In this document: piece by piece, positions 2,725 to 42,100 of the stretch
How positions within the stretch are numbered: position 1 is the first letter of the stretch
Layout of the letters: each line of letters begins with the position of its first letter
DNA from: Haliotis rufescens
Taxonomy: Eukaryota
NCBI RefSeq assembly: GCF_023055435.1
Contig: NW_025963779.1
Coordinates: 84,134,001-84,198,000 of the forward strand
Direction of reading: 5' to 3'
DNA: 64,000 nucleotides
Position numbers and translations under genes: made by a program
The notes under the pieces: model-generated
What the model saw: only the letters and a program-made list of their open reading frames with translations
What the model was told of the DNA's origin: nothing
The model's database searches: none

Positions 2725-2980
2725 AGTTGTTGATAACTCTGCACTCTGCAATATTCCAGCTATATGACGGCAGTCTGTAAATAATCGAGTCCGGACCGGA
2801 CAATCCAGTGATTGACATTATGAGCATCGATCCATTCAATTAGGATACTATGACATGCATCAACCAAGTCAGCGAGCCTGACCACCCGATCCCATTAGTC
2901 ACCTCCAACAGCAAGCATAGTCGTCTCTTCCGACAAGCATTGGTCACTGAAGTCCTATTCTAACCTGGATCTTCACGGGT
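2725..2980 (-). mobile_element. SINE-like family C (structured non-tRNA head, (AAAC)n-type tail)
   Basis: Matches the copy at 50543-50831. Confidence 0.85.
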
Positions 2981-14613: not shown

Positions 14614-15159
14614 TCACAACCTTTCCACGAAGATAATGTTATCAGATACTCCATTTCCAGAGGCTCCAGCAGCCTTATGACTGTCATGGCGAGTTATCTT
14701 TGTTAGCGTGACTGGTTCCTTTTTCCGCTCTATAGCCCGTTCTCGCATGTTTATACCACTGGTAATAAGATTGCCAAAGCCCTCTTGGTGAGCAAACGCA
14801 TAGCCTGACCGTAGTGACCTTGTGCTTCGACGCATTGTGGATTGTCTTCGCACATGAAGGTCACGTGATCGTGACTTAACCTTCTTGATTCGCTGTCGTA
14901 GCCGCACCCTATCAGCAAGGGATGGAGTAATGTTCGTCTGGTAGAACCGGTAGGCCACGACAGGCACTATGAGCACTGTACAAGTCAGAAGGAGGCTGAA
15001 CCAGAACTGGGCGGAGGAGAACACCTCGAAGGCCACACCCACATATGAGTAGTTGATGCCTTCGGAGTAGAAGGCGAGGATGAAGCAGAAATAGTAGATG
15101 ATGCTGCCCCATACCACGAAGTGGTTGAACCCGGTCCAGTACGAAGTGTCAAGTGCACA
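14614..15159 (-). CDS. ATP8B: ATP8B-like terminal coding exon (last TM helices and regulatory C-tail with GYAFAH)
   Basis: cag acceptor, 546 nt to TGA at 14614-14616. Confidence 0.93.
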   Translation of the reverse strand, partial: CALDTSYWTGFNHFVVWGSIIYYFCFILAFYSEGINYSYVGVAFEVFSSAQFWFSLLLTCTVLIVPVVAYRFYQTNITPSLADRVRLRQRIKKVKSRSRDLHVRRQSTMRRSTRSLRSGYAFAHQEGFGNLITSGINMRERAIERKKEPVTLTKITRHDSHKAAGASGNGVSDNIIFVERL

Positions 15160-18100
15160 CTGAAACACAGATGGAAAAAGTCAGAGTTGATATATCTAAA
15201 GGTGGGGGATTCAAGATGCACAATGAATTCTCACATATTTCCATATGGCATATTTCCAGTATATATGCCTACTATAACTTGTACACAAACGTGGTAGATT
15301 ATACACTTTGAACAATAAAGGATTCAGATCACAACCTGGCACATAAAAGGGAAGCAATTCTGCGTAAGATGTCTTAGAACAGCAGCTTCTGCAAGCCCCT
15401 TACCCCAGCACTGAGGCATAACTTACCAGCAAAATTGACAGGCTTGGATCCCAAGGCAACATTGGTTTGATTGGTTTGTTGTTTAACGCAGCACTCAGCA
15501 ATATTCCAGCTATATGACCGCGGTCTGTAAATAATCGAGTCTGGACCAGACAATCCAGTGATTAATATCATGATCATCGATCCACGCAATTGGGATCGAT
15601 GACATGCATCAACCAAGTCAGCGAGCCTGACCACCCGATCCTGTTAGTCGCCTTTTACGACAAGCATAGTCACCTTTTACGGCAAGCATGGGTTGCTGAA
15701 GACCTATTCTACCCCAGCATCTTCAAGGGTCCCCAAGGCAACAACATGAGTGAGTGAGTTAGTGTTTTGGGTTTAATTCTGCCAATATATTTTTCCAGTT
15801 AAACTTGCCAGCTTAATGTGGGAGGAAAGCCCAAAGTGATGCAGGTCTCAAGACTTTAATCACTTTGGTGAAACCCAAAGGCACGGCAAAGGTGCTTAAA
15901 AACCTAGAAACAATCGGGGCAAACCTGGACTCAATTAGGCCCAAGGGATGCAACTATGCACATCAAATTGCAGCATTGTAGATGACTTGACCCCCTTGCC
16001 TTCACATATTAAGTAACTACAGTGTGTTTCACAAGTTCCTACCCTGACATTGACAGCAACGACGAGGATGGAGGACACGACACAGCCGAAGGACTGCTGG
16101 TCCACTTCTGACTTGCCATCTGGACCGATGGCGTAGTTGAAGGCACCATATGGTATAAAGAACAACACAAGGGAGGTAATGATGCCTTCCAGGGTACTGT
16201 ACATAAATGTCTTCTTGTTGAAGAGTGCGTCTTTCAGCCCCGGGGCGTACAGCTTCGGGTAGCGGATGGAGTAGTCGTCATTCACATCCTGGAGGACACA
16301 ATACACATCGAATCAAGCAGTAGCATCAACCGAAGTGGTTGCTTGTCCAACAGACTCATCTACATGAACACTGAGGATGCCAAGCTGAATTTGAGTCTCA
16401 ATACAAACATTTGAGTGAGTGAGTGAATGAGTTTGGTTTAACGCCGCTTTTAACAGTATTCCAGTTATATCGCTGCGTGTCAGCTTAATGTGGGAGGAAA
16501 GCCTGAAGTGATGCAGGACTCAGATGATTACCACTTCGCTGAAACCCACGAGCACGGGTATGTTGCTGACAAACCTAGAAACATAATCGGGGCGAACCGG
16601 GATTCGAACCCACAATCATAGGTATCTGTGTGCCCAAGGGATGCACCTCTGCACAGCGAATCACAGCGCCTTAGACAACTTGGCCACCCGTGCCCGCAGA
16701 AACATTGGACTTACATGGGATAGTTATATCCTTTTTCATACTCAAAATTTGATCGGAAAATATTTTAGACACCATTGCTGGAATCATCCATGAAAAACAT
16801 CAGCTCAATAAGTCTTTTTTAGAGGAGATATTGAAAATGTATCAGTTTACAGAAGTAATGATGGACAGACAGATGAAGGAGAAAGTGCCAACACATAAGT
16901 ACATGAACTTGCGAATCTGGTCAGTTTTGAAATAATCAAAATTTCAAAAAATATTTTTTTGAAAAGTTTACATAAACTTTCAGGATCAGTACAACATCAG
17001 GTGAGATGAGTGAGTAAGAGAGTGACTGAGTTTGGTTTTATGTTGCTTTTTGCAATGTTCAAGCAATATCATGGCGGGGAAACCAGAAATGGGCTTCACA
17101 CATTGTACCCATGTCGGGAATTGAACCCAGGTCTCCTGTATGACGAGCGAATGCTATAACCACTAGGCTACTTAACTGCCCCTCAGGTGAGATGAAGCCA
17201 CTGGATTTCTGAACATTAAATGAACAAGGTTATATTGTGCTTGACTTACCTGGTCGAAGATACCGAGGACCAGGATGGGGAGCGATGTGTAGAACAAGTT
17301 GTACAAGGAAATGAAGTAGGGGTCGTACAACGTCTGAAATTGAAGATGTGCAGAAACAATGTCAGTTGTCAACTACCAATCTCCAGTATAAGGACTTTAT
17401 CAAATCAAGAATGAGCCATTGCATATGAGACAAAACTTTAAGCACAGCATGAATTTACATTTACTGAAACTGAAAAAAAAACCTGAAAAAATGTCAAAAG
17501 TACTCACCTGAGCGGAGAAGCCACAAAAGAAGGCATACCAGAAATGGCACAATGTGAATGCAAAGTTTTTGTAAAAGAAATATCGCAGAAATTTGCACAT
17601 TCTGAGGTAGGACCAACGGCCATGGACGAGCAGCAACCTTTCCAAGTAGCGGAACTGAGCCATGGAGAAATCACTGGCCAACACGGCCTGCATGCCCTCT
17701 TGACCACTGATGCCGACACCGATGTGTGCCACTGCGGACAGATGGAACATACACTGAGAAACTGTACAAGGAGCTGAAGACCTAAACTGTAGACAGAGGG
17801 TGCGGAACACACATAGCAGTCGGTCATAAACTGTACACAGGAAAAGGAATGTGAGGATGGGAGAGTTTGAGTGAGTGAGTGGACCAACCTAAAGCAACAC
17901 CATCAATTGCCTTCAAAGGTGGGAACCAAAGCATAGTTTCAGGGACAGATCACCCACTATACTACTTCGCAATGTGGTAAGGTTTAAGAAGGTGGCTCAC
18001 TGACTTGGTGTATTCATTTAGATTATGGCTGATACAGCCACTTCACTGTGTGTCGGGCAACAAACGTTCTTAGAGAAAACAACAAGGCAGACTGAAAGTT

Positions 18101-21100
18101 TAAAATTGGCTGAATTGTGAATATACTTGAACACTACATGTATTTCCAGTTTAATGCAAATCTGCTTCAGTTACGATGTGAAACATACTTTTGATCATGC
18201 TGACATCATTAGCCCCATCTCCTATTGCAAGCGTCACTGATTTCTTGTGTTTCTTGACCAGGTCGACCACGAGGGCCTTCTGGAGCGGCGTGACCCTGCA
18301 GCAGATGACGGCCTTGCAGCTTGACCCCAGGTCCAGCAGCAACCTCTCCAGCTCCGGCTTTAGGGCATACGCCTGTCAGACACAAACATCACATAATGTA
18401 CAACACTCGCGGTAATACACACACCGGCTTCAGGGCATATGCCTGTCAGACACAAACATCACATGACGTACATCACTGGCGGTAATATACAGTCCGGCTT
18501 CAGGGCATACGCCTGTCAGACACAAACATCACATGACTTACATCACTGGCGGTAATACAAACTCTGGCTTCAGGGCATACGCCTGTCAGACACAAATATC
18601 ACATGACGTACATCACTGGCAGTAATACACACTCAGGCTTCAGGGCATACGCCTGTCAGACACAAACATCACATGACGTACATCACTGGCGGTAATACAC
18701 ACCCCGGCTTCAGGGCATATGCCTGTCAGACACAAACATCACATGACGTACATCACTGGCGGTAATACACACTCCGGCTTCAGGGCATACGCCTGTCAGA
18801 CACAAACATCACATGACGTACATCACTGGTGGTAATATACAGTCCGGCTTCAGGGCATACGCCTGTCAGACACAAACATCACATGACGTACATCACTGGC
18901 GGTAATACAAACTCCGGCTTCAGGGCATACGCCTGTCAGACAAAAACATCACATGACGTACATCACTGGCAGTAATACACACTCAGGCTTCAGGGCATAC
19001 GCCTGTCAGACACAAACATCACATGACGTACATCACTGGCGGTAATACACACACTGGCTTCAGGGCATACGCCTGTCAGACACAAACATCACATGACGTA
19101 CATCACTGGCGGTAATACACACACTGGCTTCAGGGCATACGCCTGTCAGACACAAACATCACATGACGTACATCACCGGCGGTAATACACACACCGGCTT
19201 CAGTGCATACGCCTGTCAGACACAAACATCACATAACGTACATCACTGGCGGTAATACACACACCGGCTTCAGGGCATACGCCTGTCAGACACAAACATC
19301 ACATGACGTACATCACTGGTGGTAATATACAGTCCGGCTTCAGGGCATACGCCTGTCAGACACAAACATCACATGACGTACATCACTGGTGGTAATATAC
19401 AGTCCGGCTTCAGGGCATACGCCTGTCAGACACAAACATCACATGACGTACATCACTGGCGGTAATACAAACTCCGGCTTCAGGGCATACGCCTGTCAGA
19501 CAAAAACATCACATGACGTACATCACTGGCAGTAATACACACTCAGGCTTCAGGGCATACGCCTGTCAGACACAAACATCACATGACGTACATCACTGGC
19601 GGTAATACACACACTGGCTTCAGGGCATACGCCTGTCAGACACAAACATCACATGACGTACATCACTGGCGGTAATACACACACCGGCTTCAGGGCATAC
19701 GCCTGTCAGACACAAACATCACATAACGTACATCACTGGCGGTAATACACACACTGGCTTCAGGGCATACGCCTGTCAGACACAAACATCACATGACGTA
19801 CATCACTGGTGGTAATATACAGTCCGGCTTCAGGGCATACGCCTGTCAGACACAAACATCACATGACGTACATCACTGGCGGTAATACACACTCCGGCTT
19901 CAGGGCATACGCCTGTCAGACACAAACATCACATGACGTACATCACTGGCGGTAATACACACTGCAGGGCAGGGCAGATACAAGAAGTGAAACAAAAGGT
20001 GCCCGGACAATGTGTTTTGTAAGTAGTGAGTGAGTGAATGTTGTTTTACGCCGTAGTCAGACATAATCAAAGCACTACTATTACCCCTGTCACTGGATCA
20101 GTGTGCACTCAGCAATCATTCTCAGCTCCCAGGGGAGTATACAACCAAAGCTGCCTGTAAGGTGCAAGAAGGTTAACAACCACATTGTCATCTTCTCCTA
20201 CCGGGTACCCATTCACTGCTTGATGAACAGAGGCACATTTGAACAAAGTCACTTGCCGAAGGAGACACAAACTGTGTTACATGTGCTTCAATGTGGAGCA
20301 GGACTGAAGCCCAAGAAACTCTCAGGAGCCAAGCTGCAGAACACGGTCACCCGTCCAAGGACTCTCCGTGACCGACGTTGCTTAACCTGATTTGTGACCT
20401 GTGCCTTATCACAGTGAATTGTGAATCAGTGGAAGAGCCAAACCAGTGGTTGACAGCATGAACAAGGATCCAAGGAATGATGATCAACTATTTACCTGGG
20501 CCCACTTGCACAAAACGATCTTTGCGCTAAGACTATTGTAAGCCTATGTTAAAGTATGGGAGTTAAGATCATCTTAGCGCTAAGATCGCTTTGTGCATGT
20601 GGGCCCAGGTCATACATTGTGACCACTTCCTCATGTTCCACTATCGTAATATGATAGTGGTCCTTAACTTCTTTTGAGTAGAATACATAGGATACATAGT
20701 GTGTTGTCATCTTCCACAACACCCTTTTTAGATATCTAATTCATATTCTGGACTATAAAATAGCTAGTAATACACCAAGTCTAACAGCACAAATCCTCTC
20801 CTTACCAGACTGTGACCATTTATGACCACTGCAAATTCCCCATATTCATCCGAGATGGCAACATTTCCATTGGCTCCGTTATAGTGGGCTCCCTGGCCGT
20901 TGGCGATGATGACTCCGTCGTTTGGCTTGCCGGTCTTCATCTTGTCAATGTCTTCCAGGGCCTTCCGCAGCTGGGCTTCCACCTCCTCGAAGGAGTCGGC
21001 ATCAATGATGAATGGCTCCTCCATCTCCTCCGTCAACAGGCGGCAAGAGTAACCAATATTGATGGCCGTCTCTGAAACACGGCGCACACTTCTGCTGAAG

Positions 21101-24100
21101 ATTTTAGCACAGAACAATTCTTACACTGAATTATACTAATTAAGTAGAGAAGTCAATTGTCCTCTATGTGACCTTGTAAAGTAAGAGGACATACCCTGTT
21201 TGTCTCCAGTGAGGACCCAGATCTTGATGCCAGCCAAGGCCAGGTTGGCAATGGTCTCTGGCACACCGTCCTGTAGTTTATCCTCAATGGCCGAGGCACC
21301 AATGAGACACAGGTTCTGCTCAATCTCCTCGAATACATCATCCATCTTGTCATCTCTGTTGTCCAAGGTTGTACTGAAGAACAAAGAGGAAGGTGTTCTC
21401 CAGTCGGGCTAGATCTCATAAATAGGGATGTTGTAATGTCCCCAGGATTTTATATGATATCCCCGGGATTTATATGATATCCCTGGGATTTTATATGATA
21501 TCCCCAGGATTTTATAGGATATCCCAGGGATTTTATAGGATATTCAAGTCATATTTGCTATATAATATGTTATAATAACCCTGGGATTTTATTAATACAA
21601 CTTTTTACAGTTTAGATTGTAACATATGAATGTTTCTCACAAAAAAAACTATTTTGCATTTGAACACAATGTAATGAAATGTAAAATCAAATGAAAAATG
21701 TTTTCTTCATAATCCCGAGCCTCGAACACGCAACCTTCGTGGTACACTCACTGGACTAGAGACGCGCTGATGAATCAGAATGCTTTTAAGAATGTCTTTT
21801 TCATACGCCAGCAACAGACATTTATGCCTGTTTCCTAAGATTCATGGAAAGTATGTTTGAAAAAAAAAAATGTTGATAAATGCTGTTTAAAGTTTCTTTT
21901 CTCGGTTTAAAAGTTAGTTACACTTTCCCTGTTTTTTTTTTTTATGAGATTTAAAACCCTCATCCTCTGGATAATACCTCAGGGTTGACACTTTTTATCA
22001 CTTGGATTCGGGTTTAAATCTCACAAAAACCATCTGACGTATTTTATCCTACACACAACTGAAATGTTTTTGGTTTTCAGACGGCAGACTGATGAAAGAA
22101 ATTCTCTGTGTGGGAGACCAAGAAATGGGATACAAATTGTACCCAAGTGATGGATTATCCAGGTAGATAGATCGTAACATTGCTACTGCAAATATCGTAT
22201 TGAAAACATCAAAAGTGGTGTGTAAATAAGGTTTAAGTGTGCTTTTGTCCTGTCTATCAATTTCAAAGGCTGAAATGAACATACAGCAGTGGGTGAGCCT
22301 TATATGCAGAGGCTCCACATATGGTCTTGTTTGAGGAAAATACCTCCATAATTACATGCTTGATCACACAAGCTACCTCCCAAATTACNNNNNNNNNNNN
22401 NNNNNNNNNNNNNNNNNNNNNNNNNNNNNNNNNNNNNNNNNNNNNNNNNNNNNNNNNNNNNNNNNNNNNNNNNNNNNNNNNNNNNNNNNNNNNNNNNNNN
22501 NNNNNNNNNNNNNNNNNNNNNNNNNNNNNNNNNNNNNNNNNNNNNNNNNNNNNNNNNNNNNNNNNNNNNNNNNNNNNNNNNNNNNNNNNNNNNNNNNNNN
22601 NNNNNNNNNNNNNNNNNNNNNNNNNNNNNNNNNNNNNNNNNNNNNNNNNNNNNNNNNNNNNNNNNNNNNNNNNNNNNNNNNNNNNNNNNNNNNNNNNNNN
22701 NNNNNNNNNNNNNNNNNNNNNNNNNNNNNNNNNNNNNNNNNNNNNNNNNNNNNNNNNNNNNNNNNCTGCCTCACCTGGCTTCATGATATTTCTTCCTCCA
22801 TTCCACATAAAAGTTTTCGTCGATGACCTTGGATGCACAGCACAGCGTCCTCAGACCTATCTGAGCAAACTCCTGCAACAGAAGGGCAGAATGTCACTAA
22901 TAACTTGGGACTGTTTAAAGCATCAAATGTAGGAAGTGAAGTGAATGTTTTTCACAACCCCAGTCATCAATCCTTCAGCTATAACACAGCAGCATTAAAA
23001 TAATAAGACTTTGGAACAGCCAACGACTGCATGTATTAGAACTTTGGTACAACAATGTCACAGAGTCACATATGCTAAACACCCATTGTCCATGCCAGCT
23101 GTGCTTAACAACAAATATGTGATGGGTACCAGAAAACATGTGACGAAGTACAAGAAGACACACGTGACGAGGTACCAGTACACACACCTGACGAGGAACA
23201 AGAACAAACATGTGACGAGATACCACAACACACACGTGATGAGGTACAAGAACACACGTGACGAGGTACCAAAACACACACGTGATGAGGTACCAGAACA
23301 CATAGATGTGACGAGGTACCACAACACACGTGACGAGGTACCACAACACACGTGACGAGGTACCAGAAGACATGTGACGAGGTACCAGAACACACATAAG
23401 ACAAGGTATGACAACTCACACGTGACGAGGTACCACAACACACACGTGATGAGGTACCAGAAGACATGTGACGAGGTACCACAACACACATGTGACGAGG
23501 TACCACAACACACGTGACGAGGAACCACAACACACATGTGACGAGGTACCACAACACACAAGTGACGAGGTACCACAACACACGTGAAGAGGTACCAGAA
23601 GACATGTGACGAGGTACCAGAACACACATGTGACGAGGTACCACAACACACACGTGACGAGGTACCACAACACATACGTGACGAGGTACCATGAGACATG
23701 TGACGAGGTACCAGAACACACATGTGACAAGGTATCACAACACACACGTGACGAGGTACCACAACACACACATGACGAGGTACCACAACACACAAGGCGA
23801 GGTACCAGAACACACATGTGACGAGGTACCAGAAGACATGTGACGAGGTACCAGAACACACACGTACATACACGACGAGGTACCAGAAGACACTCGTGAC
23901 GAGGTACCAGAACACACACGTGACGAGGTACCAGGAGACACTCGTGACGAGGTACCAGAACACACACGTACACACATGACGAGGTACCAGAACACACACA
24001 TGACAAGGTACCAGAACACACACGTACACACACAACGAGGTACCAGAACACACACGTGACGAGGTACCATAAGACACACGACGAGGTACCAGAACACACA

Positions 24101-27100
24101 CGTGACGAGGTACCAGGAAACACTCGTGACGAGGTACCAGAACACACACGTACACACACGAGGAGGTACCACAACACACACATGACAAGGTACCAGAACA
24201 CACACGTACACACACGACGAGGTACCAGAACACACACGTGACGAGGTACCACAACACACACGACGAGGTACCAGAACACACACGTGACGAGGTACCAGAA
24301 GACATGTGACAAGGTACCAGGAGACACTCATGACGAGGTACCAGAACACACACGTGACGAGGTACCACAACACACACATGACAAGGTACCAGAACACACA
24401 CGTACACACACGACGAGGTACCAGAACACACACGTGACGAGGTACCACAACACACACGACGAGGTACCAGAACACACACGTGACGAGGTACCAGAAGACA
24501 TGTGACAAGGTACCAGGAGACACTCATGACGAGGTACCAGAACACACACGTGACGAGGTACCACAACACACACATGACAAGGTACCAGAACACACATGTG
24601 AACAAAATTCTTTAGTCAAAGGTGTGGTCTTTAGCAAATGTCGAGTGGTATATTAGACATCAATAGAAATGTGCAATATGGAAGGCAAGGGAACTCACAT
24701 TAAGGTGGTGTGAAGTAATTTCCTTCAGTTCAGCACAGGATCTGTCCAAACGCTCGAATATGACTGAGTCAGCCCCCTTACAGTACAGCGTGATGACACC
24801 GTCCTTCTTCACGATCACCTGGAGAACAGACAAACTCACAACCATCACATGGACAAGCAGCTGTTATATCTCACTCACAAATGACTTTTCAAAATGACAG
24901 CCATTTGTAGGAACCAATATTTCATTATTTTGTTAGCTCAAACATCTTTGTCCCCATGACAGAGTTGTGTATCTGGTATAGTGTTGTTCTTACCGACATC
25001 CTCTTACGGAAGTTGTTGAAGTCCAGAATGCACAGCAGATCGTACACTTCCTGTTTGCCCTGGACTTCTATTGTGATGGTGTTTGGTGTCCGAGACTACA
25101 AGCATAGAGACAGGGGTCATGTAAACCTCAGGATATCTGTTGTATGCTACATGCATTATGCAAAGTTAGAGAAGCTCCCAAAGACGAGACCCAGCCTTCC
25201 CAAATATAAGCTTAGAATTTGTATATTTAGGTTTACAATATTTTTTGATGAAAACTACAAAATCTAGCATTTGGTAACTTTCAAACCAATTTCTTAAAGT
25301 TTTGCTCAATTCTTAAATTATGCATAAATTTTTGCCCTCCCCCCCCCCCCCCCCCCCCCCCCCCCACCCACCCACCCACCCACCCACCCAAAGGGCCCTC
25401 TTATCTTACCGTGTCCTTTAACCTGTAGTATGCACAATATTTTAGTGGTGAACACGTTTGCAGTATAAAGAAACAAATGCTTTTCAGGTTCGTTTATTTT
25501 CACATGAATTTTAGGGGTTGTTCAAAATTGAGGACCAAAGTTAAAAGAGTTATCACCGAATGTGTCAATGTGACTTTGACAATGCCAACTTATCTCCCTG
25601 CTACTCATCCCCTAGTTGGCTACAGCTGTATTTACCTGACCCCCTGCTACACATCCCCTAGTTGGCTACAGCTGTATTTACCTGACCCCCTGCTACACAT
25701 CCCCTAGTTGGCTACAGCTGTATTTACCTGACCCCCTGCTACACATCCCCTAGTTGGCTACAGCTGTATTTACCTGACCGCCCTGCTACACATCCCCCAG
25801 TTGGCTACAGCTGTACTTACCTTGAAGACATAACCAAAATTCCGTGCAGCTGACACCAGAGCACCTTCATCAGGGGACTGAGCCTGGTACTCCAGGTTAC
25901 CTGCAACAATGCATGTTGAATGTACATGGAACAAGCACTGGTAAACAGGCAGATATCAGGCATTAGTTGGACATGTTGAAGGGTTCCAGGGCAACATACC
26001 TCGCAGTAGTGGAGGGATCCCTTAGAACATACAACATGCCACAGTCGGCAATGTTTAGGCTGTATTAAAGTGGCCTGAGTGTAATAGTCTACTGAGGACA
26101 GCGCAATGGTAAATAACACATGCAATGATCATGCAATCGAAGTACCACAACACGTGCAGCCATGTCACTTAGTCTGTCTCCAAGACCCTAGAAAATATAT
26201 TAAGAAACAAACCCAACTAAGTCCAGAACGATTTGGTAAGTCTGGATTGCCTCAGCCCTGAAATTAAGCAATGTTTTGGGTTCCATTTGGCTGTAGATAT
26301 CTGTAGATACATATTCTTAAATAAAATAAGTACCATATCACTCAAGTCTTCAAAGGGCATTTAGAAGAGATATACATAAGAGAGAGAATCTATTAATGTC
26401 AACTTCTTTATTCTGAGGAACACAAGGTTTCAGAGTATATATTTACTCTTTCTTCAGGTGAATGGATGAAGTCCATTGTCCAGCTGACATCCACAAAATC
26501 TCACTCGTACCATATCACTGACCAGCTGACCGCCATGTCACGCGGCCCGAACAACAACATACTATTTCTGGATCCCCTCTCGTGACGCTGCCTCAAGGTG
26601 AAGGCTACAAAATGTGGTGCTGCACCTACCACTCTCCTTGGTCTCCGGCATGACTGTATGACACAGACTCAGCAGTCTGAAGAACTCCTCCACCTGGTGG
26701 TTGCCTCCCTTGGTGTGCTCCAGCAGACGCGAGTCGTAAAAATCAAATGACTTCTCTGCATATTCATTCCCACTGAAATCTACTTTGGGAGTTCTCTGGA
26801 ATAGTGGAACAGATTCAGTGTGACTACTTCAACATCATTGAAAACATTTCAACAATCAAAAGGTATAAGACATTTTCATCTGGTTCCTAAAAGTCAGTGA
26901 GTCAAGATTTATCCACTTTGAGCAAATTTCTAGCCACATCACAGTGGGGTCAGCAGAAACCATCTCCCCATATATTACCCATGTGGGAACAGAACCCAGG
27001 GCTTCAGCATCAGCAGCAACACTTGGACCACTGGACTACTCCACAACCAAGTTAAACCATCATCCTACTGGAACATTTTGAATGCCAACACTATGACCAG

Positions 27101-30100
27101 ACAACTCAATGTGTGTATAGCCTATCGGGATGATAACTGAGTGATGTGACACCCGTTTCAATATTTCATAAAAACATAATGTTTTGGCAATGATTCCGTG
27201 AGAATTACAGAAAGTCCTAATGAAATACCTGGCCACACTGTTCAACTGGACCCTGATGTTCACACAACATTGTCAGATACTTCCAACAGCCCAGTATTAT
27301 TGTGAGGTTCTGCAGGACATGACCCATTACAGTGTTACAGTGTTAACAGCAGATCCAGTAGGATGCCATGACAAGCAGCTCATCAGCCATCTTCCCAAGG
27401 CAAGGGAGTTAACGGACAAAATCCAGTTTCAACCCTTGCCGAATTTCATGGCTCCATCGTAGCACCATTGGCTCTTACGAGTTATGTCCCTTCCATTGAC
27501 CAGTCAGATATTCCACGTCTCATCATTTGCATTTGCAAGTTACAGTTTGGCTGACCTAATGAGTCCTAGCATCATCCAATCAAAAGCACATAACAAATCG
27601 CCATCCAGTTCGTAAACAACATGATGACTGCCAGGCAGATTTCAGTTGATTGCATGATTTGCAAAGCATGTGTACCACCAAACGGCATCAACAGAATATA
27701 TCAAATCTGTTCATGCTTTTAATGACCCATTTTACTACATTATAGAACTTGATTATCGATCAAATAATCTTGACTGGGCATCACCATTTTGTCTGAAGCA
27801 AACCTATCCGTGACAACCTACTGTATTCAATGACAACAGAAGGAAACACACCTCTGTGATGTCCTGAGGGTTGCCTTCGTTGTCCAGCGGGTCTCCGTAA
27901 GATTTCCCACCTATAGATGCCTTGTTGAATGTCATGATGTTCTGAAATTAAACAACCAAATGTGAGTCATGTGAGTCACACGTCTTCACCACCTAGGTGA
28001 TTGAGCAAGTGAGTTATATATCTTCTCAGCAAGGTGAGTGAGTGAGTTATACATCATGCCTATGTTAACAATCTTCATACTATACTCACTGGTTAATAAT
28101 TTTCATGCCATATGCACTGGTTAATAATAACTGGTGAGTTAAACATCATGCATATGTTAATAATGTTCATACTACACACATATAGTAATAATGTTCATAC
28201 TACACACATATAGTAATAATGTTCATACAACACTCACTGGTTCATAATCTTCACACAACTTGCATTTGTTAATAATATTCCAGCTATATGTCGGCGGTCC
28301 AGACAATCCAGTGATTGATATCATGTGCATCGATCCACGCAATTGGGATTGATGACATGCATCAACCAAGTCATGAGTCTGTTAATAATCTTCATGTACC
28401 ACTATTGTAAAACAAAGTCTTTCGACATGGACGGCTTGGTGAGGGGCCACTACACCACACCATAACTAGGCGTTCTCAAAGGTGAGATGAGGTGAGGTGA
28501 AATGGGGTTTAACGTCGCGTCCAAGATTATTGCNNNNNNNNNNNNNNNNNNNNNNNNNNNNNNNNNNNNNNNNNNNNNNNNNNNNNNNNNNNNNNNNNNN
28601 NNNNNNNNNNNNNNNNNNNNNNNNNNNNNNNNNNNNNNNNNNNNNNNNNNNNNNNNNNNNNNNNNNNTAGTCTGGACTGATGCCGATTAATAGTGCTAGC
28701 CCACTGAGATACCATGCCGCAGTTTAACATGAATACCCCACTCAGACACAGTATACTGACTCTGAGCCGACCAGTCCTTGTTTTAGCCCCTTAACCCTAA
28801 GCGCCAGACAGGGTAACAACAAGTACCATCTTTTAACGTCTTTTGGTATGACGCGGCCGGGGATCGAACCCCGGACCTTCTACTCTCCAGGTGGACGCTC
28901 TACCACAAGACCACAGAGGCGGTTGGTGTTCTCAAAGACCTTTCCTTTCCCAGTGTAGTTTTCAGTCTTGACCAAACATTCATGAATAATTATTGTATTT
29001 ATCATAATGCATTAAATAGTATTTCAAGTACTTATTTTTAATTAATGTAATATGGTGACTTTAATTAATTTCAACATCCTTTCTAATACTTTGAAATCAC
29101 TAGGCAGCGTCGCAAACTCAACAACACACCTGTGTGAGAGTTCCTGTCTTGTCAGAAAAAATGTATTCAATCTGTCCTAGCTCCTCATTAAGGGTTGTGG
29201 TCCGAGCTTTGGCAGGGGTGTCCTTCTTGTCAAAGTACATCTTGACATCCCAGTTGATCCACAAGCTGTTGACTAGCCGGATTATCTCCACACTGTAAGC
29301 AGGCATTAACACAATCAGTGAGGTTTTCTGTAAATTGAAACATTAACTATATTTGGACACTAAAGCCTGGCATATGTAGTGAACTGTGTACTGCTTCCAG
29401 GTGGACGATGTCCTCAACACTGATGATGGGGACACACTACTCATCTGACATACAGGGAGATGGGGACACACTACTCACCTGACATACAGGGAGATGGGGA
29501 CACACTACTCACCTGACATACAGGGAGATGTGGACACAAAACTCACCTGACATACAGGGGGATTGGGACACACTACTCACCTGACATACAGGGGGATTGG
29601 GACACACTACTCACCTGACATACAGGGGGATTGGGACACACTACTCACCTGACATACAGGGAGATGGGTACACACTACTCACCTGACATACAGGGAGATG
29701 GGTACACACTACTCACCTGACATACAGGGAGATGGGTACACACTACTCATCTGACATACAGGGAGATTGGGACACACTACTCACCTGACATACAGGGGGA
29801 TTGGGACACACTACTCACCTGACATACAGGGGGATTGGGACACACTACTCACCTGACATACAGGGGGATTGGGACACACTACTCACCTGACATACAGGGG
29901 GATTGGGACACACTACTCACCTGACATACAGGGGGATTGGGACACACTACTCACCTGACATACAGGGAGATGGGTACACACTACTCACCTGACATACAGG
30001 GAGATGGGTACACACTACTCACCTGACATACAGGGAGATCGGTACACACTACTCATCTGACATACAGGGAGATTGGGACACACTACTCACCTGACATACA

Positions 30101-33100
30101 GGGAGATGGGTACACACTACTCACCTGACATACAGGGAGATGGGTACACACTACTCACCTGACATACAGGGAGATGGGTACACACTACTCATCTGACATA
30201 CAGGGAGATGGGGACACACTACTCACCTGACATACAGGGAGATGGGGACACACTACTCACCTGACACATAGGGAGATGGGTACACACTACTCACCTGACA
30301 TACAGGGAGATGTGGACACATTACTCATCTAACATACAGGGAGATGGGTACACACTGCTCATCTGACATACAGGGAGATGGGGACACACTACTCACCTGA
30401 CATACAGGGAGATGGGTACATACTACTCACCTGACATACAGGGAGATGGGTACACACTACTCACCTGACATACAGGGAGATGGGTACACACTACTCATCT
30501 GACATACAGGGAGATGGGGACACATTACTCATCTAACATACAGGGAGATGGGGACACACTACTCATCTGACATACAGGGAGATGTGGACACATTACTCAT
30601 CTAACATACAGGGAGATGGGTACATACTACTCACCTGACATACAGGGAGATGGGGACACACTACTCACCTGACATACAGGGAGATGGGTACATACTACTC
30701 ACCTGACATACAGGGAGATGGGTACACACTACTCACCTGACATACAGGGAGATGGGTACACACTACTCATCTGACATACAGGGAGATGGGGACACACTAC
30801 TCACCTGACATACAGGGAGATGTGGACACATTACTCATCTAACATACAGGGAGATGGGGACACACTACTCATTTGACATACAGGGAGATGGGGACACACT
30901 ACTCATCTCATATACAGGGAGATGGGTACACACTACTCACCTGACATACAGGGAAATGGGTACACACTACTCACCTGACATACAGGGAGATGGGTACATA
31001 CTACTCACCTGACATACAGGGAGATGTGGACACATTACTCACCTGACATACAGGGAGATGGGTACACACTACTCACCTGACTTACAGGGAGATGTGGACA
31101 CATTACTCATCTAACATACAGGGAGATGGGGACACACTACTCACCTGACATACAGGGAGATGGGTACACACTACTCATTTGACATACAGGGGAGTTGGGG
31201 ACACACTACTCATCTCACATACAGGGAGATGGGTACACACTACTCACCTGACATACAGGGAGATGGGTACACACTACTCATCTGACATACAGGGAGATGG
31301 GGACACACTACTCACCTGACATACAGGGAGATGGGGACACACTACTCACCTGACATACAGGGAGATGGGTACACACTACTCACCTGACATACAGGGAGAT
31401 GGGGACACACTACTCACCTCACATACAGGGAGATGGGGACACACTACTCACCTCACATATAGGGAGATGGGGACACATTACTCACCTGACATACAGGGAG
31501 ATGGGGACACACTACTCACCTCACATATAGGGAGATGGGGACACACTAATCATCTGACATACAGGGAGATGGGGACACACTACTCACCTGACATACAGGG
31601 AGATGGGGACACACTACTCACCTGACATACAGGGAGATGGGTACACACTACTCATTTGACATACAGGGAGATGGGGACACACTACTCACCTGACATACAG
31701 GGAGATGGGGACACACTACTCACCTGACATACAGGGAGATGGGGACACACTACTCACCTGACATACAGGGAGATGGGGACACACTACTCACCTGACACAT
31801 AGGGAGATGGGTACACACTACTCATCTGACATACAGGGAGATGGGGACACACTACTCACCTGACATACAGGGAGATGGGGACACACTACTCACCTGACAT
31901 ACAGGGAGATGGGTACACACTACTCATTTGACATACAGGGGAGTTGGGGACACACTACTCACCTGACATACAGGGAGAGGGGTACACACTACTCACCTGA
32001 CATACAGGGAGATGGGGACACACTACTCACCTGACATACAGGGAGATGTGGACACAAAACTCACCTGACATACAGGGAGATGGGTACACACTAATCACCT
32101 GACATACAGGGAGATGGGTACACACTACTCACCTGACATACAGGGAGATGGGGACACACTACTCACCTGACATACAGGGAGATGTGGACACAAAACTCAC
32201 CTGACATACAGGGAGATGGGGACACACTACTCACCTGACACATAGGGAGATGGGGACACACTACTCACCTGACATACAGGGAGATGGGGACACACTACTC
32301 ACCTGACATACAGGGAGATGTGGACACAAAACTCACCTGACATACAGGGAGATGGGGACACACTACTCACCTGACACATAGGGAGATGGGGACACACTAC
32401 TCACCTGACACATAGGGAGATGGGGACACACTACTCACCTGACACATAGGGAGATGGGGACACACTACTCATTTGACATACAGGGAGATGGGGACACACT
32501 ACTCATTTGACATACAGGGAGATGGGTACACACTACTCATCTGACATACAGGGAGATGGGGACACACTACTCACCTCACATATAGGGAGATGGGGACACA
32601 CTACTCATTTGACATACAGGGAGATGGGGACACACTACTCACCTGACATACAGGGAGATGGGGACACACTACTCACCTGACATACAGGGAGATGGGGACA
32701 CACTACTCACCTGACATACAGGGAGATGGGGACACACTACTCACCTGACATACAGGGAGATGGGGACACACTACTCATCTGACATACAGGGAGATGGGGA
32801 CACACTACTCATCTGACATACAGGGAGATGGGGACACACTACTCACCTGACATATAGGGAGATGGGGACACACTACTCACCTGACATACAGGGAGATGGG
32901 GACACACTACTCACCTGACATACAGGGAGATGGGGACACACTACTCACCTGACATACAGGGAGATGGGGACACACTACTCACCTGACATACAGGGAGATG
33001 GGGACACACTACTCATCTGACATACAGGGAGATGGGGACACACTACTCACCTGACATACAGGGAGATGGGGACACACTAATCATCTGACATACAGGGAGA

Positions 33101-36100
33101 TGGGGACACACTACTCACCTGACATACAGGGAGATGGGGACACACTACTCACCTCACATACAGGGAGATGGGGACACACTACTCACCTGACATACAGGGA
33201 GATGGGGACACACTACTCACCTGACATACAGGGAGATGGGGACACACTACTCACCTGACATACAGGGAGATGGGGACACACTACTCATCTGACATACAGG
33301 GAGATGGGGACACACTACTCACCTGACATACAGGGAGATGGGGACACACTAATCATCTGACATACAGGGAGATGGGGACACACTACTCACCTGACATACA
33401 GGGAGATGGGGACACACTACTCACCTGACATACAGGGAGATGGGGACACACTACTCACCTGACATACAGGGAGATGGGGACACACTACTCACCTCACATA
33501 CAGGGAGATGGGGACACACTACTCACCTCACATACAGGGAGATGGGGACACACTACTCACCTCACATATAGGGAGATGGGGACACATTACTCACCTGACA
33601 TACAGGGAGATGGGGACACACTAATCATCTGACATACAGGGAGATGGGGACACACTACTCACCTGACATACAGGGAGATGGGGACACACTACTCACCTGA
33701 CATACAGGGAGATGGGGACACACTAATCATCTGACATACAGGGAGATGGGGACACACTACTCACCTGACATACAGGGAGATGGGGACACACTACTCACCT
33801 GACATACAGGGAGATGGGGACACACTACTCACCTGACATACAGGGAGATGGGGACACACTACTCACCTGACATACAGGGAGATGGGGACACACTACTCAC
33901 CTCACATACAGGGAGATGGGGACACACTACTCACCTCACATACAGGGAGATGGGGACACACTACTCATTTGACATACAGGGAGATGGGTACACACTACTC
34001 ATTTGACATACAGGGAGATGGGTACACACTACTCATCTGACATACAGGGAGATGGGGACACACTACTCACCTGACATACAGGGAGATGGGGACACACTAA
34101 TCATCTGACATACAGGGAGATGGGGACACACTACTCACCTGACATACAGGGAGATGGGGACACACTACTCACCTGACATACAGGGAGATGGGGACACACT
34201 ACTCACCTGACATACAGGGAGATGGGGACACACTACTCACCTGACATACAGGGAGATGGGGACACACTACTCACCTCACATACAGGGAGATGGGGACACA
34301 CTACTCACCTCACATACAGGGAGATGGGGACACACTACTCATTTGACATACAGGGAGATGGGTACACACTACTCATTTGACATACAGGGAGATGGGTACA
34401 CACTACTCACCTGACATACAGGGAGATGGGGACACACTACTCACCTGACATACAGGGAGATGGGGACACACTACTCATCTAACATACAGGGAGATGGGGA
34501 CACACTACTCACCTCACATATAGGGAGATGGGGACACATTACTCACCTGACATACAGGGAGATGGGTACGACAGTGTTGAGGATGATGAGGTAAGATAGA
34601 AACACCAGCACAGCAATTGTTGCAGCACCCTGCTCCTTGTCGTCATTCACAAAGGTCTCCCATGGCAGATACAATTGGAAGTCAAAGCCGACCACGCTCT
34701 CCCAGACACCACAAGCAATGGTGGTCACGAGGCACATGGTCAAGAGGAACAGGAATATCTGAAAGGAATAGGTCATACTGTCAGTACAGGACACTTTCCT
34801 ACAGTGTATTCCTGGTCCTTGCTTAAAGTGTTATAGGTCCCTGCATAAAGGGTTATAGGTGCCTGCTTAAAGTGTTATAGGTCCCTGCTTGAAGTGTTAC
34901 AGGTCCCTGCTCAAAGTGTTATAGGTCCCTGCTCAAAGTGTTATAGGTCCCTGCTCAAAGTGTTATAGGACCCTGCTCAAAGTGTTACAGGTCCCTGCTC
35001 AAAGTGTTACAGGTCCCTGCTCAAAGTGATATAGGTCCCTGCTTGAAGTGTTATAGGTCCCTGCTTGAAGTGTTACAGGTCCCTGCTTGAAGTGTTACAG
35101 GTCCCTGCTTGAAGTGTTACAGGTCCTTGCTTAAAGTGTTACAGGTCCTTGCTTAAAGTGTTACAGGTCCTTGCTTAAAGTGTTACAGGTCCTTGCTTAA
35201 AGTGTTACAGCTCCCTGCTTTAAGTGTTATAGGTCCCTGCTTGAAGTGTTATAGGTCCCTGCTTAAAGTGTTACAGGACCCTGCTCACAGTGTTACAGTG
35301 AGTGAGTGAGTGAGTGAGTGAGTGAGTGAGTGAGTATGGTTTTACGCCGCTTTTAGCAATATTCCAGCAATATCACGGCGGGGGACACCAGAAATGGGCT
35401 TCACACATTGTACCCATGTCGGGAATCGAACCCGGGTCTTCAGCGTGACGAGCGAACGCTTTAACCACTAGGCTACCCGACCGCCCACACAGCGTTACAG
35501 GTCCCAGCTTGAAGTGTTATAAGTCCCTGCTTAAAGTGGGACAGGTCCTTGCTTAAAGTGTTACAGCTCCCTGCTTTAAGTGTTATAGGTCCCTGCTTGA
35601 AGTGTTACAGGTCCTTGCTTGAATTGTTACAGGTCCTTGCTTAAAGTGTTACACGACCCTGCTCACAGTGTTGTAGGTCCTTGCTTAAAGTGTTACAGCT
35701 CCCTGCTTGAAGTGTTACAGCTCCCTGCTTGAAGTGTTACAGGTCCCTGCTTGAAGTGTTACAGGTCCCTGCTTGAAGTGTTACAGGTCCCTGCTTGAAG
35801 TGTTATAGGTCCCTGCTTGAAGTGTTATAGGTCCTTGCTTAAAGTGTTACAGCTCCCTGCTTGAAGTGTTACAGGTCCCTGCTTGAAGTGTTATAGGTCC
35901 TTGCTTAAAGTGTTACAGCTCCCTGCTTGAAGTGTTACAGCTCCCTGCTTGAAGTGTTACAGCTCCCTGCTTGAAGTGTTATAGGTCCCTGCTTGAAGTG
36001 TTACAGGTCCCTGCTTAAAGTGTTACAGGTCCTTGCTTAAAGTGTTACAGGTCCTTGCTTAAAGTGTCACAGCTCCCTGCTTAAAGTGTCATAGGTCCCT

Positions 36101-39100
36101 GCTTGAAGTGTTATAGGTCCCTGCTTGAAGTGTTACAGGTCCTTGTTTTAAGTGTTATAAGTCCTTGCTTAAAGTGTTATAGGTCCTTGCTTAAAGTGTT
36201 ACAGGTCCTTGCTTAAAGTGTCATAGGTCCCTGCTCAAAGTGTTATAGGTCCTTGCTTCAAGTGTTATAGGTCCCTGTTAAAGTGTTATAGGTGCCTACT
36301 CAAAGTGTTATAGGTCCTTGCTTAAAGTGGTATAGGTCCCTGCTTAAAGTGTTATAGGTGCCTACTCAAAGTGTTATAGGTCCTTGCTTAAAGTTACATA
36401 GGTCCCTGCTCAAAGTGTTACAGGTCCTTGCTCAATGTGTTATAGGTCCCTGCATAAAGTGTTATAGGTGCCTACTCAAAGTGTTATAGGTCCTTGCTTA
36501 AAGTGGTATAGGTCCCTGCTTAAAGTGTTATAGGTGCCTACTCAAAGTGTTATAGGTCCTTGCTTAAAGTTACATAGGTCCCTGCTCAAAGTGTTACAGG
36601 TCCTTGCTCAATGTGTTATAGGTCCCTGCATAAAGTGTTATAGGTGCCTACTCAAAGTGTTATAGGTCCTTGCTTAAAGTGTTATAGGTCCTTGCTTAAA
36701 GTGTTATAGGACCCTGCTCACAGTGTCACAGGTCCCTGCTTAAAGTGTTACAGGTCCTTGCTTAAAGTGTTATAGGTCCCTGCTCACAGTTTTACAGGTC
36801 CCTGCTTAAAGTGTTATAGGTCCCTGTTTAAAGTGTTACAGGTCCTTGCTTAAAGTGTCACAGGTCCCTGCTCACAGTGTTACAGGTCCCTGCTTAAAGT
36901 GTTATAGGTCCTTGCTTAAAGTGTTACAGGTCCTTGCTCAAAGTGTTATAATCACTATCATGGGTCTGTAGTGCTTAGACTGTTCATTTAAGAATTGACT
37001 TTCACTTCATATGGCAACATTAGGTATGAACCTTCATAGAGTGAGGGCCAAACTTGCAGAGGGCCAGAGCTTGCCGATCATTGAAAGGTGATGATTATAA
37101 TGATACCGTATTCGACGTAATAAGCGCCCGTGGCGCTCTCAAAATAAGAAATAAGGACTCTTATTAGAAAATAATTATGGTGAGAAAAAAACCAGAGTTG
37201 AAAGATTGTAAAGTTTGTTGTTTAGGCTGACAGCCTGAAATGATACAAAAGAAAAGTATGTGCGTATCATACATGACAGATATATTTTCCAGAATTTAAT
37301 TGCCCATAATTAAGGGTGCATATAACACACAAGTGCGTATTATACACAAATAAAAAAGTCTTGTGTACATTGATCAATCGGAAGGTGTGCTAATTGGGAT
37401 TGTTCACTTGCCACTAGCAAATATCGCCGTGGGCGCTTATTAGAGAGGGGCGCTTATTACGTCAAATAAGGTATGTCAAATTGGTACTGAGATAAATTCT
37501 TAGATAGGTGTGGGTTGTCACTGTCAGTCTATGCACAAATCGAGTCAATAGTTTGGGAGTGCATTTCGTTGTTTTGGGCACTAAGATGGGTCTTAGTGAG
37601 GATACTCATGCATGGGCACTATCAGACTTTTCCCAATGTTTGCTAAAATACTTAGTTTAAGATTAAAGGATCTAAAATACCAAAAACAGCACTTCTGTAG
37701 CTATTCATGCTGGGGAATAGGCTATTTATAATGCGCATATTTCCACACAACTGAAGGGAATGCTCAAAGCGTTATTACCCCGGTCACTGGATCAATGTGC
37801 ACTCAAGAATCATTCTCAGCTCCATGGGGAGTATACAACCCAGGCTGCCTGTTTGCCTCTAGAAGGTTTACAACCTCATTGCCATCTCATCCATACCAGC
37901 ATGCCCACCCAAACCCAACACAAGTCAGCCCCATGCAAGCATGGTTGCCGTAAAAGACGACTATGCTTGTCGTAAGAGGCGACTAACATGATCGGGTGGT
38001 GAGGCTCGCTGACTTGATTGATGCATGTCATCGTATCCCAATTGCGTGGATAGATGTTCATGATGTCAATCACTGGATCGTCTTGTCGAGGCTTGATTAT
38101 TTACAGACCACCATCATATAGCTGGAATATTGCTGTGTGCAGCGTTCAACAACAAACAAACAAAGCAAGCATGACGTAACAATGTCCTGTTGCCACAACA
38201 TGCTACAGGCTACAACTCACTCCAACAATGAGGATATTCATGAGTCGGTCGATGTGGGTTCTCTTGAACACTGTCTTGCCGCTGTTCATCATGAGCTTTG
38301 AGTCATGTCCGGCGAAGACGACGAGTCCGTAGCACCACTGGGTGTTCCGCAAGACACATCCCCTCAGCACCACCTTGTCGTTGTCCAGGGAGTAGGTCTC
38401 TCCCTTCCACGTCAACTTGCCCTCAAACTTGCTCAGGCGGATGTTCGGAGCTTCACAGATTATCTCCGCTGTAAAGTGACAAAGCAGGACATTTCAGACA
38501 TTGAAAGTTCCAACATTTCGACACGTCTTTATTATTCACTTTTGCATGTCATTGTTTTTACCAAACAATTGATGAGTCGAGAAACTGAATTGCTCATCTA
38601 AACCATGAAACATTCAGGTGGATTTATGTTATTATATACTATCTATGAAAGCCTTTTTCATGATCCTCGACATACTAAGGCATCATATCCCGTTCTATTG
38701 AGATAAATACCCAGGACCCATTCACCACAAAAGCTTTGTTTCGTTTTGTTCAACCATTTCCATCTCGGTTTTTCTCGGTCCTGAGTCCAATCTGATTGCA
38801 TGCCTTATTTTAAATCAGTGTCTTGTGAAACTAAGCGAATGGGTGCAGCGTATTTATCCTAACAGAATGGAGGAATAACATTCTGAATAATTAAGGATGT
38901 GAGGTGGGGTGAAATTGGGTTTAACGTCGCATCCAAGATTATTGCACTTATATAGCGACGTGCATGCACGTGTGTAATTAAGGATGTGGACAAGTGAGTG
39001 AATTTCTTTTTATACCACAGTGGCCATTAAATGAGGATACCAGTAGGTGGTAGCATGGAGAAAATAGCCACGCCATCAGCTCACAATGACACAGGAGGAA

Positions 39101-42100
39101 CCAGGTTATTAGTATCTTACCATTAAAGCTGCATAGGACTCAGTTAACATGAGCTACCTAATTTCATCACTGACAAAAACTCCCTCTATTTCAAACAGAT
39201 CTTAATTAACTAACATTATCATCGAAATTAATCTAAAAATATATTTATTTAAAAAAACTATGACAAAACAAAACTGTCACCTTTCCTGATCAGAACTGTG
39301 ATATATATTCAAAGTAAGAAATGATTTTTTCAGTTGACAGAAAAATAGTTAAAATCTGTGATTTGAAATCATGTGCATAAATCATTCATGACTGACAAAT
39401 GACCTATAAAATCTGAAACCTTAAATCAATATAACAGTAGCCACAGATGTTTATCCTGTGTGATGGACTGACGTCAGGTGGAGAGCGACGTCCCCAACAT
39501 CAATCTCAACAGCTGGCCCTATAGTTGATCTGATCGGTCTACAGTCGACACTCTTCAACTGATTCAGATAATCAATGACTACGATGAACTGATTCATCCA
39601 GAATTCAACAACAGTGACTATACACTGTAATAAACAGGTGATCTGCCTGCGAGTCTCAGATGGGAGATGACTTTGATGTTCTTCATGCCACAGGCAAACC
39701 AGTACTTCCAAACCAAAGTAACAATCCACACTGTCAGGTGTGATGATACAGCCATTTTGGCCTCCCAATACTCACAAACTTTTGGTTTGTTGGTTAACGC
39801 CTCAAAGAGCACTATTCCAGCTATATGACGGCGTTTTGTAAATAACTGAGTCTGGACCAGACAATCCAGTGATTGACATCATCAGCATCTATCACAATTG
39901 GGATATGATGATATGCATCAACTAAGTCAGCGAACCTGAGCACCGATCCCGTTAGTTGCCTCTTACGACAAGCACAGTTGCCTTTTACAGCAAGCATGGG
40001 TTGCTGAAGACCTATTCTACCCCAGATCTTCACAGGTAGTAATCTATTCGGATCCAAGTTAAATAACAAGAAACATGTGATAGGACAGGTTGGAAAATCA
40101 GGAGGTTGGTTAGGGGTAGGCTGCATAATATGAAACAATTGAGGGGGGCGGGATCGTGGGCAATGTGAGAGAGGGGATGTCACAGGAGACGCTAAAGGAT
40201 GGGGGTGGATATTAGGGTGGGGCATAGATATGAGAGAGGAAGGGGACCACAAGGCTGTGACTACTGACCATTAAACTGTGACATCTTTGGATGATCGTCT
40301 CCAATGACCGCAGTCTCTGGCAAGGCCTGTTTCACCTTAAGATTGGTCTCCCTGTAAAACCACAAACACAAATAATACAAAGGTACTGAAGCTCACCTGT
40401 ACCAGATAATGCAGGAGCATTGGGTTATGTTACCAAAGCAACACGGCTACAATTCAACAAGCAAGACAATGCAATTAGTTTCAATTATTTCTACTGATAT
40501 CATATCTATTGACTATCACATCCTGATTTACCTGTCACATTGGCTGCCAAGTGCTAAGAATATCTTAAACACTCACTGATATTTAAAGATTTATACTGTC
40601 CAATATGGATTAAGGATCTCACAGATAAACAGATAATCAGCCTAACCAAATGGTATTCATTGAGTGAGTTTTGTGTAACCATAGTCAACAATACTTTAGC
40701 CATATGTTAACTGAAAATAGAATCTGGTTAATATTTGAGAATGCTGACAAGAAGTAGATGCCATACAGTACTTGATCCTGAACACTTTCTGAATTTCAAT
40801 GCAGGATGAATAGGACAGAACATGCTGTCAATATATAAAAAGCCACTATTAATAAAGAAATTATTCCCCGTGAATTGGAATCCACATTTCCACAATGCTG
40901 TATCGAGCATGAAGACAGTAGCCTTCATGTACACATTCCTGATCGGTGCAGGCAGAAATCTTTAATTTTCAAAGTGAACCCCCAACATTGCGGTAGATTT
41001 ACTAAACATCCTCTCATCAATACCAAGCAATAACTTCAGTGGTTTCCGAGACTTTACTTTTCAGTCTTTGAAATTAAAACTCTAGATGTAGTTGGAGCGG
41101 TCGGGCAGGCTAGTGGTTAAAGCGTTCGCTCGTCACGCTGAAGACCCAGGTTCGATTCCCGACATGGGTACAATGTGTGAAGCCCGTTTTCTGGTGTCCT
41201 CCGACGTGATATTGCTGGAATATTGCTAAAAGCAGCGTAAAACTATACTCACTCACTCACTCACTCACTCACTCACTCACTCACTAGATGTAATTTGTTA
41301 TTTTGTTTAACGCCTCACTCAGCAATATTCCAGCTATATGGAATGTAAATAATCAAGTCTGAACCAGACAATCCAGTGATCGACATCATGAGCATTAATC
41401 CACACAATTAGGATATGATGACATGCATCAACCAAGACAGCAAGCTTAACCAACAGATCCCGTTAGTCACCTTTTACGACAAGCATAGTCGCCTTATACG
41501 GCAAGAATGGGTTGATGAAGAACTATTCTACCCCGTATCTTCACGGGTCTCTAGATTGAGGGATATATAGAGCCAGTATATTGATGTTGATGTTTTTGGT
41601 AGTCTGGTGCTAACAGAAGAACATATATTCAAGGAAGGACAAAACTCCCACGACATAGTGGCAGGCAGAAATAACAGTAATAGATAGAGGGATGAGCCCC
41701 AGGTGTCAGACACAGCACCTCAATGGATGTGTTTCATCCTACTACAGTCAGTATCTACAACAGCTTACCCATCCAACTCGGCAGTCTCAATGTAGCATAA
41801 ACTGTTGGGTTCACTGGTGGACAGCAGCATGAAGTCAGCCTGAAACACATGGAGACACAACATCAGCACCTTCACTGACCACGGGGCAGATCCAGGAGTG
41901 TACTATGTGAAGAATAAAGCACGACTCCTCGGTTATGGTCGAGGAAGTAAGACCAAGGCAAGAGGGTATCTCAGCCACACATTGCTAAAACTGTCTAAAT
42001 GCAAGAAGTAACAGAAAAAATAAGAAAACATCGATATATATTATAGCGAAACAATGCAGTGTGTTGAGGTATAAAAGAAATGCGATCAAATCGTGCGAGA

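Follow-up and report, generated by a model that had tools for sequence, protein, structure and literature searches.

A mirage minisatellite of variable length carries 23 splice acceptors in an abalone flippase gene

A minisatellite that repeats the end of an intron together with the start of the following exon presents many copies of the same splice acceptor, and one such array in Haliotis rufescens raises the question of how the last of 23 copies comes to be used in preference to the 22 before it, and what becomes of the extra sites. The array lies in the window analysed here, by which we mean the whole stretch of 64,000 nucleotides (RefSeq assembly GCF_023055435.1, contig NW_025963779.1, positions 84,134,001 to 84,198,000 of the forward strand). 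A preliminary description of this DNA treated the structure as unusual; it belongs instead to a class already described in amphioxus, the junction-spanning minisatellites called 'mirages' (PMC3087553, in part), and the abalone flippase array is a further case. We think it probable that the array is a tolerated, length-variable mirage minisatellite, that its last copy is used through exon-side context and that transcripts leaking into the other copies are decayed.

The array and its host gene

The host is an abalone ATP8B-type flippase gene, because the 61-residue exon beside the array is 100% identical to 'phospholipid-transporting ATPase ID-like' proteins of three Haliotis species and because 21 coding exons, from 60979 to 14617, map onto residues 32-1200 of protein P0003. 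Exons of this gene measure 71-266 nt; the array-bearing intron, from 20805 to 18373, is 2433 nt long, and the next intron 457 nt. The features of the locus are:

14617..60979, minus strand: gene that holds the array, an ATP8B-type P4-ATPase (phospholipid-transporting ATPase ID-like), with 21 mapped coding exons
20806..21071, minus strand: 266-nt upstream exon, whose end the RNA-type contigs join to copy 23
19964..20805, minus strand: unique 5' part of the intron that also holds the array, 842 nt
18354..19963, minus strand: minisatellite, 23 x 70 nt, head-to-tail and junction-spanning
18424..19963, minus strand: 22 decoy units, acceptors 19912 to 18442, CAG/G intact in all
18373..18423, minus strand: intronic 51 nt of copy 23, whose acceptor is the one spliced in the RNA-type contigs
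18189..18372, minus strand: real exon, 184 nt, P0003 residues 774-834 including GDGAND, with its donor after 18189

TRF places the array at 18352-19963, with a period of 70, 23.0 copies, 94% matches, 0% indels and a score of 2860. Each unit is made up of the last 51 nt of the intron and the first 19 nt of the exon, read on the minus strand, and the 23 acceptor junctions follow one another at a spacing of 70 nt from 19912 to 18372 on that strand, which confirms the earlier account of about 51 plus about 19 nt in 23 copies. The extra units retain their splice signals: over positions -10..+2 all 23 copies agree to the letter, and 19 of the 22 decoys agree with copy 23 over -22..+2 as well. The real junction is that of the terminal unit, copy 23, which runs on into the real exon. 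There are 16 distinct unit types among the 23 copies, with an ordered higher-order structure: copies 5-9 recur unchanged as copies 13-17, which makes an 8-unit higher-order duplication. Copy 1, at one edge of the array, has the majority sequence, while copy 23, at the opposite one, is the most diverged of all, with 6 differences from the array majority against 0-4 in the other copies. Five of the six (at 18423, 18408, 18403, 18397 and 18395) are intronic, compared with 0-3 elsewhere, and the true copy is thus, as had been claimed, the one with the highest intronic divergence. Taken together, the duplicated block and the divergence of copy 23 are a pattern of concerted evolution within the array, from which the edge unit is excluded. 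The 70-nt unit matches only its own place in genome G000, where a search that skips very common words returned 6 overlapping matches.

Two observations concern the coding sequence of the gene and its relatives. Two short matches to the GDGAND exon (runs X6, X8 and X12, window 18196-18256) come from a second locus, which is probably a paralogous P-type ATPase gene. Within the host gene, two paralogous 99-nt exons (53119-53217 and 49624-49722, minus strand) encode the same transmembrane stretch and are used in a mutually exclusive manner; in three Haliotis species these exons are the sole difference between the members of annotated isoform pairs, and the acceptor of the exon at 53119-53217 lies 20 nt from the end of an array of 76 copies of 26 nt.

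Array length among samples

Four DNA runs from four studies cover the locus: X1, X6 and X8 from organism A, and X12 from organism B. Three of them (X1, X6 and X12, from three studies) contain many unit variants and show a pile-up of depth over the unit, which in the bin 18349-18367 reaches 306 against 10.4 in the flank in X1, 684 against 33.9 in X6 and 305 against 29.2 in X12. X8 has 2 records over the region and a flat depth of 16.5. Here, a contig of 1369 nt follows the window over 17950-18422 and from there jumps to 19963, leaving one unit, and is shorter than the array by 1540 nt, that is 22 x 70 nt. This single unit carries decoy letters at 18397, 18403 and 18408 (positions -25, -31 and -36) and no listed exon difference. 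Judged by its sequence, the contig is an apparent one-unit allele, which probably arose by contraction and may otherwise be a retained ancestral state. Since a one-unit contig stands beside many-unit samples, array length therefore varies; rough depth ratios among the samples are 1, 10, 20 and 29, depth not being equal to copy number, and copy number appears to range from 1 to 20 or more.

The single unit of X8 would also suit the explanation that the other copies are an artefact of assembly, which we regard as scarcely credible, given that the 23 copies include 16 unit types in an ordered arrangement, that DNA runs from three studies yield many unit variants with a pile-up, and that unit-to-unit contigs occur in three of the RNA-type runs described below. 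Two of these runs, X17 and X19, place the array in organisms B and C; it is present in organisms A, B and C and apparently absent in sample X8. In X19 the summed depth is 163-228 in array-unit contigs, 76 in the exon and 3.4 in one further intronic contig (window 18372-18495), a difference that could be due to a much longer array in organism C, to DNA in the run or to stable array-bearing RNA.

The acceptor that is used

The RNA-type runs, whose RNA status is presumed, number four and come from four studies, of organisms A, B, A and C; they were compared as contigs only. Contigs drop rare variants, so they show the main splice form only. The comparison was made with 17200-18495, which contains the last two units, and junctions at copies 1-21 would be detected there only through their likeness to copies 22-23. 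Each of the four runs has a contig whose match stops at 18373 and picks up again at window 20807, where the upstream exon ends, with no unit interposed; three such contigs span the exon as 185 letters without gaps, and the fourth spans 18237-18373. Of the 9 loose ends listed there for these four runs, again in contigs only, not one lies at the copy-22 acceptor. The main mRNA is spliced regularly in four of four runs (rare forms being invisible in contigs), and the proposal that the true exon uses the last of the 23 copies is borne out by the joining of copy 23 in each. All seven annotated Haliotis proteins, from four named species, read straight across the junction; P0003 and P0122, both named H. 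rufescens, are not independent, because they may be models of the same genome.

It had been suggested that copy 23 is marked by its own diverged intron letters. Such a mark might consist of a better branch point, or of the loss of the CAG that all decoys carry at -36..-34 and that one of the five intronic differences of copy 23 turns into GAG at -36. Persistence of the terminal variant speaks for it: in X12, from organism B, a unit with two copy 23 letters occurs at about single-copy depth (31.8 against 29.2), and an X1 contig is identical to copy 23, from which we conclude that the variant is old and shared. We nevertheless consider a mark of this kind quite unlikely. The apparent X8 allele sets decoy letters, at the three positions given above, directly before the real exon, and the intron letters of copy 23 are for this reason probably not the mark; going by the contig, the decoy-type acceptor of X8 would be a functioning one. 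The -36 change, moreover, is absent from all four organism B contigs at that place; placed X6 contigs hold no copy 23 letters at 18403 or 18408, a weak point in that assemblers drop rare arms; and copy 23 has a predicted unpaired fraction of 0.33 over -25..+1, within the 0.25-0.37 of the decoys. Divergence of copy 23 can be explained without selection, because edge units of mirages escape homogenisation (PMC3087553, in part). RNA structure hiding the decoys was also considered and rejected, folding z-scores being 0.79, -0.71 and -0.24 and local accessibility equal across copies.

Selection of the acceptor from downstream, on the exon side, was likewise put forward in the preliminary description and fits best. 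Exon-likeness over +20..+69, measured by a 5-mer score of exon against intron that was trained on other genes and is noisy (3 of 20 real exons have negative values), comes to 0.71 in copy 23 and ranges from -0.15 to -0.45 among the 22 decoys. The sequence 3' of the acceptor unit is, in the decoys, TG-rich intron, and copy 23 is the copy nearest the next donor. Exon size alone was rejected as a selector. Copies 1-21 would give exons of at least 324 nt, beyond the 71-266 nt range of the gene; copy 22 would give 254 nt, within that range, and cannot be excluded by size because the gene has real exons of 246-266 nt. The letter at exon +12, where copy 23 has CTA and all 22 decoys have CTG, was similarly discarded as a diagnostic base: X15, X17 and X19 each have one unlisted exon difference, only X18 has 0, and the listing of differences hides mismatches near piece ends. 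The unique contig of X12 falls 10 letters short of the point at which those of X1 and X6 stop, and this end would fit a CTG at +12 in the real exon of organism B.

Acceptor choice would thus rest on exon-side context, namely exon definition together with enhancer-like exon sequence, and not on the acceptor letters, copy 23 being favoured as the only copy with a real exon body downstream and by its proximity to the next donor. Reed and Maniatis (1986) are said to have shown that the length of exon beside a duplicated splice site decides its use. PMC9225289, however, summarises that work with the opposite rule, one of intron proximity. The same source describes, for human site pairs flanked by long introns, a preference for those splice sites that lie nearest one another across the exon, which the abalone locus resembles in that its introns measure 2433 and 457 nt and the exon adopted is the shortest one. 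Human upstream 3' splice sites are nonetheless generally preferred, and exon definition weakens this preference without reversing it, so that cross-exon proximity alone may not suffice (PMC9225289, in part); a rule drawn from human site pairs does not fully explain the choice of one acceptor in 23.

Decoys, mirages and other junction arrays

Spliced from donor 20806, only copy 23 stays open, giving the 184-nt exon. Read-through of the decoys reaches TGA after 17 amino acids in 21 of 22 cases and TAA after 14 in copy 20. A particular decoy peptide had been quoted as preceding TGA in most units; the TGA stands, while the exact peptide occurs in 2 of the 22 (copies 1 and 17), the others varying at a few residues. 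Between each decoy stop and the end of the exon there are at least 200 nt, and four introns follow; on both grounds leaked decoy transcripts would be expected to decay.

A more active role, which we hold to be unlikely, is that the decoys regulate dosage, either by diverting a copy-number-dependent share of transcripts to decay or by acting as 18-nt in-frame micro-exons. Eight of the 22 decoys do have GTGTGT after +18, which could close such a micro-exon, and four of these score 8.4 on a donor matrix, inside the range of 5.8-12.5 spanned by 19 real donors of the gene; yet neither a decoy junction nor a micro-exon was found in contigs of the four RNA-type runs, and a scan of 124 homologous proteins, 70 with a match to the junction pattern, turned up no duplicated peptide. 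Diversion to decay would be in keeping with the early stop in 22 of 22 read-through uses, the apparent copy number of 1 to 20 or more (from rough depth ratios, depth not being copy number), the array in three labelled organisms and the deep array-derived contigs in X19, but less so with the one-unit allele of X8 or with similar arrays at unrelated genes, which suggest a mutational process and not a gene-specific device. On the reading that we prefer, that of a tolerated mirage, the array would have originated by tandem duplication across the intron/exon junction; slippage or unequal exchange would then have altered its length, nonsense-mediated decay would clear decoy-spliced transcripts, and the array would be near-neutral.

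In the amphioxus gene BflGb6, mirage units consist of the 3' end of an intron together with an exon's 5' part, splicing is normal by RT-PCR and two haplotypes have 6 and 3 units (PMC3087553, in part; alignment in its Additional file 4). Further amphioxus mirages are those of BflGb9, Adh3, troponin C and PGBD5 (PMC3087553 and PMC3902484, both in part). PMC3902484 adds PGBD5, a gene with more than one array, and cites the Adh and troponin C cases; somatic instability is reported for the Adh3 mirage. All six features of the class that were examined are found in the abalone array, and the likeness extends to junction-spanning units, splice signals kept in many of the extra units, regular splicing, length variation and a diverged edge unit. 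Unlike the described amphioxus cases, the abalone is a mollusc with 23 acceptors and 151 donors (2-7 copies in globin and PGBD5), all 23 acceptors are intact, there is an apparent one-unit allele and one gene contains three junction arrays. The part of PMC10078293 available to us contains no case of a unit that includes an acceptor, and no such array in abalone was found among the top-ranked literature matches, most subscription journals lying outside the coverage.

The other two junction arrays of the host gene are:

29425..34566, minus strand: donor-type array, 34 nt x 151, the true donor 34547 being its first copy
25596..25822, minus strand: third junction array, 46 nt x 4.9, starting at donor 25821

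The first of these had been announced at 29424-34566 in the same gene and was recovered. Of its 151 copies, 110 keep AG/GTGA and 41 have lost the GT (AGATGA or AAATGA). Units of the 46-nt array carry the donor-like CAG/GTAAAT, and the junction is crossed by only 2-3 letters. A related human case is the 37-bp VNTR in IVS7 of F7, in which donor pseudo-sites are functional yet out-competed by position (PMC1557585, in part). As in abalone, a polymorphic minisatellite repeats a splice site and only the exon-adjoining copy is used; the F7 repeat differs in lying on the donor side, in having 5-9 copies and in being explained by 5'-to-3' scanning (PMC1557585, in part). Scanning from upstream cannot explain the acceptor array, because the copy used there is the last transcribed, and the 34-nt donor array is the closer counterpart of the F7 VNTR.

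An excess of junction arrays in the host gene (3 seen against 0.78 expected, P=0.045) was set aside, since the window had been picked for such arrays and the test is unfair. Between the first and last mapped acceptors (15159-60979), 16 arrays fill 19,335 of 45,820 bases; arrays at 60662-60857, 34814-36950, 21439-21543, 23125-24601 and 28042-28280 start less than 100 nt from a splice site.

A wider sample of the genome was drawn from the 256 matches to myosin-head and kinase domains listed for G000; it took in 142 of them, at 88 loci and over 381,576 bases, and passed over full-length kinase domains encoded by a single exon as well as matches beyond the retrieved DNA. Arrays with a period of at least 10 and at least 3 copies number 64 and fill 8.3% of the sampled DNA. 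Among 284 match ends, which are only approximate splice sites, 16 have an array end within -60..+79 nt, 2.2 times the rate further out (p=0.007), and the enrichment is 2.8-fold without a paralog cluster (188 ends). This small sample suggests that array starts are about twice as frequent close to exon ends as they are elsewhere. By eye, among 15 of the 16 ends, arrays at L120 and L113 clearly repeat the donor with 10-18 exonic letters and two at L119 cross the junction by 3-4 letters; the flippase array therefore exemplifies a process that recurs in this genome. That abalone minisatellites are born preferentially at exon borders and that acceptor arrays are, in addition, heritable, length-tunable leaks setting flippase dosage is a combination that we find improbable. 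Were the leaks real, each added decoy would divert transcripts to decay or add an in-frame six-residue micro-exon, and the one-unit allele would provide a natural allelic series for last-of-many acceptor choice.

What is distinctive here is the apparent one-unit allele with its decoy-type acceptor, together with the hint that arrays start near exon ends, which, small as the sample is, bears on models of intron gain. Natural alleles whose identical acceptors number from one to about twenty, in an animal that is farmed, are material for questions of 3' splice-site choice, and such a series bears on whether position and downstream exon sequence alone decide and on whether decoys cost mRNA.

Several minor observations were made in the same survey. 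L119 (G000:C17, a myosin-like gene) has its two arrays in neighbouring introns, at 2129-3041 and 3066-3431 of the locus: an acceptor-crossing array of 42 nt x 21.8, whose extra copies have CAT instead of CAG, and a donor-crossing array of 41 nt x 7.7. Two-copy duplicates of the acceptor junction were seen by eye upstream of matched exons at L116, where AG is kept, and at L100 and L067, where it is lost; these are possible seeds or decayed remnants of junction arrays. In the window, a 22-nt two-copy motif recurs at 15645-15689, 37941-37985, 39954-39996, 41464-41505 and 50747-50791 and is probably part of a dispersed short repeat element. At about 13.9-14.3 Mb of G000:C113 there is a tandem cluster of about 14 myosin-head genes.
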